From the NCBI GenBank assembly GCA_963817895.1, contig CAWFQB010000001.1:864001-928000 (forward strand): a DNA stretch of 64,000 nt. The letters run 5' to 3'. This document shows positions 45,389 through 47,732 of this stretch, piece after piece (within the stretch, counting starts at the first letter, position 1; the number at the start of each line of letters is the position of its first letter). Position numbers and translations under genes: made by a program. This DNA is from an uncultured Chthonomonadaceae bacterium. Its GTDB lineage: Bacteria; Armatimonadota; Chthonomonadetes; Chthonomonadales; Chthonomonadaceae. Below the pieces are notes generated by a model that was not told the DNA's origin, made no database searches, and saw only the letters and a list, made by a program, of their open reading frames with translations.

Positions 45389-45466
45389 TTATTTGATGCC
45401 GTAGCGATAATCCTTGTTCTCGATAATGGTTGCGGCTTTGTCAATGCGAGCTTGGGTGACGGGGTG
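45389..45466 (-). pseudogene. Displaced copy of the last 26 codons of the M48 gene at 46887
   Basis: HPVTQARIDKAATIIENKDYRYGIK* versus HPVTQARIDKAEAIIENKDYRYGVK*; 65/78 nt identical. Confidence 0.9.
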
Positions 45467-45597
45467 AACCGCCTCAATGAAGAACATTGTATTTAAGTGT
45501 GGTCAGTTAAACACCGAACGCTTGTTTATCAGATTTGCAGGAATGCATCCGCGCAGCCGCAAACTATGCCGCATTAAAAACAGCCGGAGAACTGTTT

Positions 45598-46158
45598 ATG
45601 CAAATTGACAATCCTGATGAATTGCCGTACTATGTGTTGGAAGGTCAGCGGCCTGTGCGGGTACGGTTTACGCCGTTGGAGGCAGAGGATGAGGCTTACA
45701 TCAATGACTGGTGGTATGCTTCCGTCTATTTCGCTATGTGGCAGCATCTTGCGCAATATGAATTGTCTCGTCAGGCGACTTTGAAACTGGTTGCCGCTGA
45801 GGGACAGGATACTTCTATTTTGGGTTTGCTGCGCATGGCAAGCGACACCTCTGTTCAGGTAATGTACGGCAAACTGAATACGAAATCGGTGCTGGAAACC
45901 GCGCCCCGCTTCCGCTATCCGGTTCAATCGCGTGATTACAGGGGCATCGGCAAAGTGTTGGTTGCAAGGCTGATTGCCGAAAGCATTCGGCATGGGCAGG
46001 AAGGCGCTCTGGTTGTATCACCGCGCAAAATTGTGGTTCCGTTTTATTTGCATCTTGGCTTCCGGCGATCCAGCAGAAATCCGAACCGCTTCTTTATTCA
46101 GCAAGAATCAGGCAGGCAGTTGCTGCAAAGCGTTTTGCAGGAAGGCGAAAACAAATGA
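45598..46158 (+). CDS. GNAT-fold protein (toxin-like)
   Basis: YRGIGKVLVA acetyl-CoA motif, PFYLHLGF. Confidence 0.75.
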   Translation: MQIDNPDELPYYVLEGQRPVRVRFTPLEAEDEAYINDWWYASVYFAMWQHLAQYELSRQATLKLVAAEGQDTSILGLLRMASDTSVQVMYGKLNTKSVLETAPRFRYPVQSRDYRGIGKVLVARLIAESIRHGQEGALVVSPRKIVVPFYLHLGFRRSSRNPNRFFIQQESGRQLLQSVLQEGENK

Positions 46159-46811
46159 ACGCAGAAGAACGCGCTATTTTTGAGCGCGCAGACCAAATAG
46201 CCCGTGAGATTACAGACCGAGACTGGCTGGAAGCGGGAATGTCGCAGGAGGAACTGGACCAAAGCCGTCTGATAACGCAGCAGATGAACGCGGCGTTGGC
46301 TGAAGGCTATTCAATGGATGAGGTTCTGAGGATGTATGATTGTATGCCCTCCGAGGAAACATCGGCACAAGAGGAGACTGCGGACCGTTCTGCCAACCCG
46401 AGGCCGACGCAAACGGATATAGGGAACAACGCCGCCAGAGAATCAAGGATGCCGACCTTGATTGAAGCGCCGACTGTCATTCAAGCGGCAGGCAATAAGC
46501 CCAAGCGAATTGAAGAATATATCGGCAGGGTTAATTCACAGACGGCGGCGGTAAGCGTGGCGCGTATGGTCAGTCCGGCAGGATGGATAGAGTCGGGGCA
46601 AACACCGGAGTTCGATGAGTACACGGTTGTTTTGCGTGGTCTGCTACAGGTAACGACACGCGCTGGCGTGTTGAATGTGCGGGCGGGGCAAGCCGTTATC
46701 GCGCATCGGGGCGAGTGGGTACAATACAGCTCGCCTGAAGCGGAAGGCGCAGAGTATATTGCCGTGTGCCTCCCAGCTTTCTCGCCCGACAGCGTTCACC
46801 GCGACGCATGA
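46155..46811 (+). CDS. Small acidic protein fused in frame to a cupin (internal ATG 46449)
   Basis: ATGA overlap with GNAT; cupin GQTPEFDEYTVVLRG..GEWVQYS. Confidence 0.75.
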   Translation: MNAEERAIFERADQIAREITDRDWLEAGMSQEELDQSRLITQQMNAALAEGYSMDEVLRMYDCMPSEETSAQEETADRSANPRPTQTDIGNNAARESRMPTLIEAPTVIQAAGNKPKRIEEYIGRVNSQTAAVSVARMVSPAGWIESGQTPEFDEYTVVLRGLLQVTTRAGVLNVRAGQAVIAHRGEWVQYSSPEAEGAEYIAVCLPAFSPDSVHRDA

Positions 46812-46886
46812 ACGAAAAGCCGCCTGCGAAATAATGCCAAATGTTCGAGGCGGCTGCCATTGGGAAATGAGAACGCAGTCAGACTG

Positions 46887-47732
46887 CTATTTCACTCCGT
46901 AGCGATAATCCTTATTTTCGATAATGGCTTCGGCTTTGTCTATACGCGCCTGCGTGACGGGGTGGTCGCGCAGCCATTCCGGGTCACCGCCGCCCTGCCG
47001 GTGTTCCAGACGCGCCAGTTTATCGAAGAAGCGCACCATGCCATTCGGGTCGTAGCCCGCTTCGGAAGCGTAGGAGAGGCCGCGCCGGTCCGCCTCGTAC
47101 TCGTCGTCGCGGCTGTATTTCAGCCCCACAACGCCCGCGCCCATCCCGGCAAGCTGGTTGTACGTCGGGTTCGGAATGAAAATGTTAATCAGCAGGCTGG
47201 TGGTGATGTTGGAGGAGAGTTGGCGGGCGGCGTGACGGGCGGCGACATGTCCGCACTCGTGTCCTAAGACGCAGGCCAGCGCGTCATCATCGTCGCCCAT
47301 CATGTCCAGCAGGCCGCGAAACACGTAAACCGGGCCACCGGGCAGGGAAAAGGCGTTGATGTCCTTTACATCCAGCACTTTGAACGTGTAATTGATGCCC
47401 GGACGATCTAAATGCGGCAATAGCCGTTGCCCAATCGTCCTAACGCGGTCGGCATCGGGAGATTTGGTGTCCACGCGGAATTGCTGCTCCACTTCCCGCG
47501 ACGCCTCCTTGCCAAGATTGATCTCCTGTTTGGTGGATAGAAAACTTTTGGTGCGGCATCCGGTCAGCCCACTTAAAGCGACGAGGGTGATACAAGCCGA
47601 AATCAGGCGCGTCCATCGGGGGGAACGAACACGCCAAGCGGCAAAAGCGACAGCGGGCGCATGAAAATCTAACGCGCCAGAGGGGTTGCAAGGGGGGAGG
47701 GTCTTGCGAAGCAATGGAAATGAAACACGCAT
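46887..47732 (-). CDS. M48-family metallopeptidase lipoprotein (start uncertain)
   Basis: LTGC lipobox, NAFSLPGG, HECGH, EYEADRRG, DHP. Confidence 0.93.
   Translation of the reverse strand: MRVSFPLLRKTLPPCNPSGALDFHAPAVAFAAWRVRSPRWTRLISACITLVALSGLTGCRTKSFLSTKQEINLGKEASREVEQQFRVDTKSPDADRVRTIGQRLLPHLDRPGINYTFKVLDVKDINAFSLPGGPVYVFRGLLDMMGDDDDALACVLGHECGHVAARHAARQLSSNITTSLLINIFIPNPTYNQLAGMGAGVVGLKYSRDDEYEADRRGLSYASEAGYDPNGMVRFFDKLARLEHRQGGGDPEWLRDHPVTQARIDKAEAIIENKDYRYGVK

Follow-up and report, generated by a model that had tools for sequence, protein, structure and literature searches.

A 1.5-kb islet that encodes no integrase lies at the 3' end of a gene for an M48-family peptidase in a 64-kb stretch of DNA from an uncultured Chthonomonadaceae bacterium, a member of a poorly studied lineage of soil. 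The stretch, at its full length of 64,000 nucleotides, is called the window below (G000:C1:864001-928000, where G000 is the metagenome-derived genome that carries it, with a completeness of 81%). The islet is reasonably likely to be horizontally acquired DNA that arrived with an isofunctional foreign allele of the last 25 M48 codons. This foreign gene end would now complete the M48 gene, and the resident end would have been shifted 1.5 kb downstream, to persist as a dead remnant beside valS. Both gene ends are present in the window, a related genome has the empty site, the differences between the two ends carry the signature of a foreign allele, and the same arrangement recurs elsewhere in G000.

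It has long been asked how small toxin-antitoxin (TA), restriction-modification (R-M) and other defence modules spread when no mobile element can be recognised, and the islet is a useful case for how small defence and TA modules move between genomes with no integrase of their own. Two further genomes of the genus, G002 and G001, which are about 16% diverged from G000, served as outgroups. Genes were called by longest-open-reading-frame heuristics, and the list of islets given below is drawn from one genome, G000.

The duplicated gene end and the empty site

A repeat search identified a direct repeat of 77 nt (45390-45466 and 46888-46964; 84% identity, spacing 1498 bp), with an E value of 8.6e-18 in an 18.5-kb self-comparison. 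It is the sole direct repeat of at least 40 nt within 8 kb anywhere in the window. On the minus strand, 45389-45466 and 46887-46964 each comprise the final 25 codons and the stop codon of the M48 frame, and 65 of the 78 positions are identical. The 13 nucleotide differences are spread over 12 codons and amount to eight synonymous changes of sense codons, the exchange of TAA for TAG, and three residue changes (E/A, A/T and V/I). Both copies open with the identical 11-mer CACCCCGTCAC, while the sequences that flank them are unrelated. The open reading frame (ORF) of 281 aa to which one copy belongs, 46887-47732(-), matches Peptidase_M48 in Pfam (E 1.2e-30). A first-pass annotation, made from the letters of the window, had described the tail duplication at a distance of 1498 bp with 13 nucleotide differences, nine of them synonymous codon changes if TAA/TAG is counted, three residue changes and an abrupt onset of similarity at an identical sequence; all of these details were reproduced.

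The only ORFs with a family match between the two tails are a GNAT acetyltransferase gene and a partner-cupin fusion, and the remaining ORFs overlap these two. The GC content of the island (52.9%) is lower than that of the valS and M48 flanks (58.6-58.7%) and of the genome (56.8%). Scans of the locus for tRNA genes and Rfam families gave no match. A diversity-generating retroelement was considered as a source of the differing copies and rejected: there is no reverse transcriptase ORF, and the 13 differences span all four bases in both directions.

The M48 gene of G002 and its valS converge with about 96 nt between them and no gene interposed, and this empty site is present in both contigs that cover the locus (C43 and C69; L135 and L134). 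These two contigs contain one 7-kb stretch in duplicate, 98.7% alike, pointing to two strains or haplotypes in the G002 assembly. Synteny of the window with G002 is intact on either side of the islet. The M48 tail of G002, a single copy, matches 45389-45466 in an alignment that continues for 6 nt past the stop, whereas the DNA 3' of the stop of the gene-attached tail is cargo and unrelated to G002. Since G002 has the empty site with M48 convergent with valS, the valS-side copy is, judged by alignment, the displaced resident tail in its original place, and the insert extends from 45467 to the stop codon of the gene-attached tail. The empty allele that the first-pass annotation had pictured, with valS convergent with M48, thus exists in G002. 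In G001, the gene downstream of M48 differs from valS.

The body of the M48 gene shares 91% of its residues with the G002 ortholog and 84% with that of G001, and 642 of 768 nucleotides are identical to G002. Both tails end in ...YRYG(V/I)K before the stop, as do the orthologs of G002 and G001, while the orthologs at 17 loci of other genera end in ...GQ or ...GH. Because both tails end as the orthologs of the genus do, neither derives from a paralog, an origin that would have spoken against the first interpretation. None of 38 ortholog loci in other genomes has a second M48 tail.

Two alleles of one gene end

The tails are 13 of 78 positions apart from each other, 17 and 15 from G002, and 21 and 18 from G001. 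They are therefore mutually nearest, and distance alone is not decisive. More can be learned from the direction of the changes. When the differences were polarised with G002 and G001, the gene-attached tail had five derived changes (four scored as synonymous, the fifth being a third-position change in the V/I codon), and the remnant had two, both non-synonymous; six were ambiguous. Duplication in place is disfavoured by this pattern, because a neutral remnant should evolve several times faster than a constrained tail. The probability that at least five of seven derived changes fall on the constrained copy is 0.005-0.03, for an expected share of 0.2-0.3.

The nature of the differences points in the same direction. 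In the M48 tail, about 21-25% of single-base changes are synonymous, and the probability of at least 10 synonymous changes out of 13 is 1e-4 for p = 0.25 and 0.01 for p = 0.41, the latter value being our own estimate for the case in which one copy is neutral and the other constrained. The remnant branches of four islets, polarised in the same way and pooled, have 16 synonymous and nine non-synonymous changes (P = 4.5e-4 at an expectation of 30%). This suggests that most of the divergence accrued while the present remnants were still working gene ends.

The gene-attached tail is thus best read, from its sequence, as a foreign allele, and the two tails would be functional alleles of different lineages that were joined fairly recently. 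The first-pass annotation had likewise spoken of an incoming allele plus cargo, as opposed to local duplication and decay, and this is supported by the empty site, by the polarised changes and by the same signature in other islets.

A class of integrase-free islets

To place the M48 islet in a wider context, G000 was compared with itself in 9-kb pieces, and 89 isolated two-copy direct repeats of 40-400 nt, at least 300 nt apart within a piece, were kept. Of these 89, 11 have a long ORF whose stop is no more than 2 nt from a repeat end. When the edges were shifted 110 times as a control, the count averaged 3.4 and reached 10 at most; this control is noisy, since long spurious frames are common at this G+C content. 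After inspection, about 11 islets are recognised in G000, including the M48 islet. The other host genes encode two major facilitator superfamily (MFS) transporters, an ATP-grasp protein, an aldo/keto reductase, an HD-GYP-type response regulator, an ABC-2 permease, a KdpD/Usp protein, a DUF3866 protein, a TIM-barrel protein and one protein without a family. In each islet, two alleles of the 3' end of such a housekeeping gene enclose the cargo. The distances from stop codon to repeat end in the 11 islets are 1, 2, 1, 1, -7, -1, 0, 0, 7, 0 and 1 nt, which places nine of them within 2 nt. Three candidates were dropped: at C1:1364441 and C2:67933 either the long ORF is unlikely to be genuine or the repeat belongs to small genes that are paralogs, and at C4:274499 the host frame has no stop at the repeat edge.

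The cargo was examined in 49 ORFs of 11 regions (ten islets and one candidate that was later dropped), and much of it is of a selfish or defensive kind. Three of the ORFs encode PIN toxins; others encode an MmeI-like methyltransferase accompanied by an HNH protein, a C-5 methylase (split between two ORFs) next to an NOV_C protein, Shedu SduA with a STAND-like protein of 1706 aa, and a DUF4365 protein. An integrase, resolvase or transposase catalytic domain was found in none of the 49; one of these ORFs has a DDE_Tnp_1_assoc domain. As a positive control, the same scan recovered a classical island at the 3' part of a tRNA-Phe gene (G000:C4:223391-227966), flanked by 65-nt repeats of 97% identity, which carries its own tyrosine recombinase gene inside (226908-227450). 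The nearest of the nine PF00589 matches in G000 lies about 190 kb from the M48 islet.

With frames set by the host ORF, 114 synonymous and 65 non-synonymous codon differences were counted over 14 pairs of tails (the 11 islets of G000 together with L033, L026 and L144 from other genomes). In the ABC-2 permease pair, all 12 differences over 71 codons are synonymous. Two remnants have a 1-nt gap that puts them out of frame, and are therefore dead copies. Comparison of G000 with G002 gives identities of 86% and 91% for cargo, against 81% and 79% for the respective host genes; that the cargo is more alike than its hosts fits exchange within the genus after the species split.

One host gene carries islets in both species. 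The KdpD/Usp gene of G000 has a tail repeat of 133 nt around a VapBC-like pair, and that of G002 (L144) has a repeat of 89 nt around an HNH gene. In L144, which lies on G002:C19, the two copies of the KdpD/Usp tail are at 3565-3653 and 4473-4561, and the cargo is a 161-aa ORF in which an HNH-like motif is visible by eye. The remnant in G002 ends in ...SSEEA before its stop, like the functional tail of G000, whereas the functional tail of G002 ends in ...SAEEG. This hints at an exchange of tails between lineages, to judge from these few residues. No common motif was seen by eye at the 5' edges of 10 islets, and no motif search was run.

Within the window, the class is confined to the M48 islet. 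The first-pass annotation had reported the same pattern at 31767, 40581 and 41145; in 29000-47500, no nucleotide repeat other than the M48 tails was found, and none of the three places has a residue-level copy of a gene tail, save for a likeness of 29 residues between 41207-41293(+) and the end of ORF 27241-27588(-). The gene-tail pattern is real elsewhere in G000, outside the window. The 29 residues are 65% identical to the C-terminus of that ORF, which lies 14 kb off on the opposite strand, and are found near a small ORF (41536-41841). This is not a tail duplication of the M48 kind, and it may be what was meant at 41145. A further group of small same-strand ORFs, many without an obvious housekeeping role, follows a gene that ends at 31819 and occupies 31849-36076. 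By its appearance it is a larger accessory cluster, around which no flanking repeat was found.

The cargo module

The first gene of the cargo, ORF 45598-46158(+), has a weak match to GNAT families in Pfam (best E 3e-4, below the cut-off) and no family in NCBIfam or PADLOC. Its assignment is based on the acetyl-CoA binding motif YRG(V/I)G..L(V/I)ARL, conserved in an alignment of 12 family members, and on a fold predicted by AlphaFold2 (AF2) with a mean predicted local distance difference test (pLDDT) value of 85.8. The fold has 169 matches in the PDB at E<=0.001, with GNAT acetyltransferases throughout the top matches listed. The toxins KacT and TacT are among the matches, with TM scores of 0.4-0.57, no better than other GNATs.

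The second gene, ORF 46155-46811(+), begins 4 nt inside the end of the GNAT gene, in an ATGA overlap, and encodes a fusion. Its N-terminal part is a helical partner domain of about 75 residues, which is kept 3' of the GNAT gene in 10 modules and has no family in Pfam, NCBIfam or PADLOC. A complex of partner and GNAT was predicted with a score of 0.78, against 0.19 for the best of three controls; the runs agree in at least 74% of contacts, and the pLDDT of the partner is at least 76. The mark applied to this score is attained by 116 of 157 solved complexes and by 2 of 215 mismatched pairs. Binding of the partner to the GNAT protein is thus a model prediction and not a measured result. Residues 96-218 of the fusion resemble stand-alone cupins of about 120 aa (Atlas feature score 0.99), while Pfam Cupin_2 matches at only E 0.022; the single-sequence fold of this part, with a pLDDT of 38, was not used. 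The description of the cargo in the first-pass annotation as a GNAT gene with a fusion of a small protein and a cupin is therefore borne out by the predicted fold, by the partner domain of 10 modules and by the cupin likeness. On these predictions, the GNAT protein and its partner are read as a TA-like addiction pair that would resist loss, with the GNAT protein as the putative toxin.

The module is a multicopy accessory unit of patchy distribution. It occurs in five of 61 genomes searched, at five places in G000, nine in G002, four in G015, three in G023 and one, weakly, in G046, and in five of 301 genomes sampled across the phylum. A tblastn search with the GNAT protein gave no match in either a plasmid or a phage collection. 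The second copy in G000 (L002) is 73% identical in DNA, lies between adenosylhomocysteinase-like and TPR genes, and is truncated within the cupin. Its homology to the islet, and that of a copy in G002 (L148), starts at the same base, 45488, which is 21 nt from the remnant. This implies that the insert is essentially the module alone.

Direct repeats bracket the GNAT gene at four of the 20 loci of the family. Besides the M48 islet, these are L033, where a 110-nt repeat (98% identical) is the end of a Peptidase_M3 gene and only 8 nt of unshared DNA remain on one side; L026, where a 56-nt repeat (77% identical) forms the end of a gene of the VanZ family and the resident copy runs into the beginning of a recQ-like ORF; and L042, where a 94-nt repeat (87% identical) lies at no recognisable gene end. 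In L033 and L026, which belong to two other genomes, the likeness again stops at the stop codon. The module runs in the same direction as the host gene at these two loci and in the opposite direction in the M48 islet, a variation that does not fit a module-borne attachment site at a fixed end.

At one further locus (L034, G000:C9:48281-51578), a member of the GNAT family is fused to the C-terminus of an 805-aa protein, and the partner gene comes after it. The 805-aa protein is preceded by an ORF of 162 aa; by eye, the N-terminal sequence of this ORF (...KIFISYAHLDH...) resembles TIR. The locus may be a defence-type fusion of the GNAT module.

How the islet may have formed

Recombination without a dedicated recombinase is, tentatively, the likeliest route. 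Donor DNA of a related lineage, consisting of a gene end and its cargo, would have been anchored by homologous pairing within the host gene, and its far side closed illegitimately inside the redundant resident tail or by way of a second tail copy borne by the donor. In the latter case, the whole structure may have been transferred, the gene body serving as its left arm and the second tail copy as its right. The two tails would then be portable homology arms that move the islet, or new cargo, between lineages. Joints within the resident tail would be favoured by selection where a neighbouring gene is near, and valS ends 30 nt away. The first-pass annotation had offered two mechanisms, integration of the attL/attR type by an enzyme in trans and homology-anchored capture of transforming DNA; our interpretation leans to homology-anchored capture. 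A single sequence-specific integrase is disfavoured because host genes, orientations and 5' edges vary, the latter even at one host gene, and because the islet has no recombinase.

Several observations weigh against acquisition with a foreign gene end, or against this route to it. The likeness of the tails breaks off with the stop codon, and does so precisely even where the two copies are 94-98% identical; this is not explained by simple homology-anchored capture, and is typical of site-specific elements such as e14 at icd, in which no more of the target than its coding end is carried. No donor arrangement was found, and the nearest GNAT relatives (65% identity) are not beside M48. The two tails are mutually the closest of the four sequences available (13 differences against 15-21), which would require a donor close to this lineage. 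Only seven changes could be polarised at the M48 islet, and the numbers are small. No close relative is available to show donor sequence reaching into the M48 body, which would distinguish one-sided capture from a crossover at the repeat edge; windowed identity of the body to G002 is 71/78 just upstream of the repeat and 55/72 in the last window, and a divergence of 16% gives no breakpoint resolution. The GNAT protein is not linked at the level of families to the known GNAT toxins, which also have the opposite gene order. As for competence, to which the first-pass annotation had pointed, G000 has ComEC and a DprA that is broken into two frames; as both families occur in 10-11 of 14 control genomes, this does not demonstrate competence. 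The DprA match (DNA_processg_A, G000:C1:330360-330981) lies in two overlapping frames, through a frameshift or a sequencing error.

Searches for a closer strain or a donor had the following outcome. The M48 protein has 133 relatives among metagenome contigs, the best 74% identical and all of other-genus type, with no close strain among them. A soil-metagenome run with 0.06 of the sampled words yielded, at 80% likeness, eight short contigs, mostly of relatives (six of them less than 90% alike), which left the junctions uncovered and contained no joint. A search of genome contigs with a single GNAT protein returned one locus, a copy of the G002 type without flanking repeats.

A recombinase acting in trans, or the decay of larger integrative elements to addiction modules, is a serious rival, though an unlikely one in our estimate. 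As in the integration of e14 at icd, the element would bring an att site with a replacement gene end and cross over at the 5' edge of the repeat, and its integrase would act in trans or have been lost; loss of most of the element would leave only the addiction module, which is hard to delete. The architecture is the same as that of e14, where icd continues into prophage sequence and a pseudogene of its C-terminal part is found at the opposite end, as described in the available part of PMC13626634. The tail repeat opens with an identical 11-mer and closes at the stop codon, and in nine of 11 islets no more than 2 nt separate stop and repeat end, even at 94-98% identity. G000 also has tyrosine recombinases and the tRNA-Phe island with its own integrase, and cargo enriched in TA and R-M genes would fit the last survivors of decay. 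Yet no recombinase is found in the 49 cargo ORFs or in the M48 islet, and the islets are tight around the module, with unshared DNA on one side of 21 nt here and 8 nt in L033. Members of one module family occupy the tails of three different genes and occur in both orientations, the 5' edges of 10 islets share no motif visible by eye (no motif search was run), and one host gene has repeats of 133 and 89 nt in two species. The repeats might also have arisen at the insertion itself. Strict insertion with long target duplication, by which the resident tail is duplicated, for example through the filling in of staggered breaks, and then diverges in place, is known for R-M systems, with repeats of 46-423 bp that often lie across start or stop sites and no mobility genes, according to the available text of PMC2853133. 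It would accord with the tails being mutually closest, and with the two polarised changes of the remnant being non-synonymous, as for a dead copy. It is nevertheless quite improbable, given that the constrained copy has more derived changes (5 versus 2) and that 10 of the 13 differences are synonymous where 21-25% would be expected at random and about 41% with one neutral copy. The remnant branches of other islets are likewise mostly synonymous (16:9), one pair entirely so (12/12), and G002, about 16% diverged, has the empty site, yet the tails differ equally.

Very improbable, finally, is an assembly artefact in which the M48 ends of two strains were joined in one contig. Strain mixtures do occur, as the two haplotype contigs of the same locus in G002 show, and G000 is an incomplete assembly. 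A join of strains, however, would not insert a coherent 1.4-kb module of two genes with its own leader; the architecture recurs at about 10 further loci on six contigs of G000 and in three other genomes, and synteny with G002 is intact on both sides.

It is tempting to speculate that the islets represent an undescribed mode of mobility for TA, R-M and defence modules, in the form of gene-tail cassettes that consist of the last 20-70 codons of a host gene, ending at the stop, and cargo. We regard this as doubtful at present. Such a cassette could enter any lineage that has the host gene, swapping in its own allele of the gene end and leaving the old end behind. It would rely on host recombination at the built-in homology arm, or on an unrecognised trans-acting enzyme that fixes the junction at the stop codon. 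The paired tails might then serve as a landing pad for the exchange of cargo, as may have happened at KdpD/Usp, where the cargo differs between two species.

Features of the locus

The features between valS and the M48 gene are collected in Table 1. The hairpin in the spacer downstream of the cupin stop has a predicted energy of -30.3 kcal/mol with a z score of only -1.5. A terminator scan gave a lone terminator-like match on the minus strand of this spacer (46887-46875), in a scan whose matches were not above those of shuffled sequence. On the strand of the module, the only promoter-like match lies within the GNAT gene (45605-45633) and was not above shuffles.

Table 1. Features of the M48 islet, in positions of the window
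Feature	Position	Strand	Basis or remark
Displaced resident M48 3' end, 25 codons and TAA (by alignment)	45389..45466	-	repeat; 30 nt from valS stop
21-nt junction, remnant to module	45467..45487		absent from paralogous modules; homology of L002 (G000) and L148 (G002) begins at 45488
Conserved module leader 5' of GNAT gene	45488..45597	+	73-75% nucleotide identity to paralogous modules
GNAT-fold acetyltransferase, 186 aa, putative toxin-like component	45598..46158	+	weak Pfam match, motif, AF2 fold, PDB
Fusion of 218 aa: small helical partner domain (1-75), linker, cupin-like domain (96-218)	46155..46811	+	
Spacer, cupin stop to M48 stop, with GC-rich hairpin	46812..46886		weak evidence
Functional M48 3' end, 25 codons and TAG, read as incoming allele	46887..46964	-	repeat and polarised changes
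M48 peptidase gene body	46965..47732	-	Peptidase_M48 match; ortholog identity

Upstream of the M48 gene, two overlapping ORFs, 47772-48545(-) and 48316-49062(-), resemble the C- and N-terminal halves of one gene; an Acetyltransf_6 (FemAB-like GNAT) domain is seen only in the former. The gene split at 47772-49062 is a single ORF in G002 (L004, 1-1371) and G001 (L005, 2408-3685). The break falls at an inserted repeat element, so the gene is either frameshifted here or mis-assembled. Short repeat elements lie within coding genes at 43560-43760 and 44655-44790 (both in valS), at 48316-48545 and at about 49790-49870, where they give rise to low-complexity stretches such as ...IRDTRYEIR... and ...EGEIGRGGEGE.... 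The valS gene of G002 has another insert (...STINYQLSTI...) at the position of the second valS insert of the window, and such elements are highly multicopy in G001 and G002, with many short matches of 70-90% around one spot. We take the inserts of the valS type to resemble the palindromic elements that insert in frame into protein genes of other bacteria.

Comparison with known systems

GNAT-type type II TA pairs include TacAT, KacAT and AtaRT. Similar to these, the module consists of a GNAT-fold enzyme of about 180 aa, with the acetyl-CoA binding motif, and a small partner that is predicted to bind it; stop and start overlap, and the distribution is patchy and multicopy. It differs in that the partner is encoded downstream and not upstream of the enzyme, and in that the partner has no match to the ribbon-helix-helix (RHH)/DUF1778 family or to any other. 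The fold of the enzyme matches toxin GNATs no more closely than it matches GNATs of other kinds.

C-terminal displacement, which leaves orphan 3' ends in Rhs, contact-dependent inhibition (CDI) and type VI secretion system (T6SS) effector-immunity loci, is proposed to proceed by homology-facilitated illegitimate recombination (Kirchberger et al. 2017; PMC5361080, as far as its available text goes). In the loci described there, as in the M48 islet, incoming DNA that finds its anchor in the conserved 5' portion of a gene supplies a different 3' end together with a linked gene, and the old end is shifted downstream. The M48 locus accordingly has a one-sided homologous anchor, a new 3' end with foreign DNA, and the old end behind it. 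The difference, on the same partial text (PMC5361080), is that the new end in those loci is a new toxin domain and the process is diversifying, while here it is an isofunctional peptidase allele with an unrelated payload.

The integration of e14 at icd was reportedly described by Hill et al. in 1989. In this system, the inserted DNA supplies a functional gene end, the original survives as a C-terminal pseudogene, and the two ends differ conservatively, according to the available part of PMC13626634. The M48 locus shares the supply of a replacement end and the displacement of the original as a pseudogene. It differs in that e14 is 15 kb in length, with its own integrase and excision functions, whereas the islet is 1.5 kb without a recombinase, and in that the GNAT module family uses several different gene tails (compared with the same partial text, PMC13626634). 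Evidence for a fixed att core is divided: the 11-mer opens both M48 copies, the edge at KdpD/Usp differs (133 versus 89 nt), and there is no second insertion at M48 among the 38 ortholog loci.

Insertion with long target duplication is said to go back to Nobusato et al. in 2000. For R-M systems it has been described by Kobayashi's group (Furuta et al. 2010; PMC2853133), in the available text of which the repeats hardly differ from one another or from the target, agreeing for example at 44 of 46 positions. The islets resemble these insertions in several respects covered by that text: the insert is small and free of integrase and transposase genes, the direct repeats far exceed the target duplications of transposons, a single copy is present at the empty site of a related genome, the repeats are often at gene ends with the gene left intact, and the cargo is selfish or defensive. 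The M48 islet has repeats of more than 30 bp (78 nt) with one copy at the empty site of G002, an insert of less than 20 kb (1498 bp) and no mobile gene, which are features by which such insertions are recognised (PMC2853133, in part). It does not carry R and M genes, although two sister islets of G000 carry methyltransferase-based systems. The known cargo in that text is R-M, whereas here it is a GNAT pair, with PIN, Shedu and HNH genes elsewhere in G000. The repeats of the islets are diverged, mostly synonymous alleles that usually end at the stop codon instead of spanning it, and an origin of both M48 repeats from the resident target, as in the published cases (PMC2853133, in part), does not agree with 65/78 identity, the excess of derived changes on the constrained copy and the synonymous bias.

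A limited search of open-access text on long target duplication, which is no proof of absence, listed no paper that describes it for TA cargo; in one TA review the phrase occurs in the reference list only, and the other papers listed were judged by title and the opening of the abstract. What sets the islets apart is the combination of repeats that are diverged, mostly synonymous alleles, a junction at the stop codon, several families of defence or addiction cargo and about eleven cases in one genome. All of these cases have one signature, a foreign allele of a gene end before the cargo and the resident end behind it, with the junction usually at the stop and no recombinase. In practice, defence genes of recent origin could be located in any genome by searching for displaced gene ends. 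The islets also make the idea of hitch-hiking by recombination testable, with regard to the sufficiency of tails of 50-200 nt, the role of RecA as against a specific enzyme, and the function of tails as sites of cargo exchange. In comparison with the systems known so far, they extend insertion with long target duplication beyond R-M systems.

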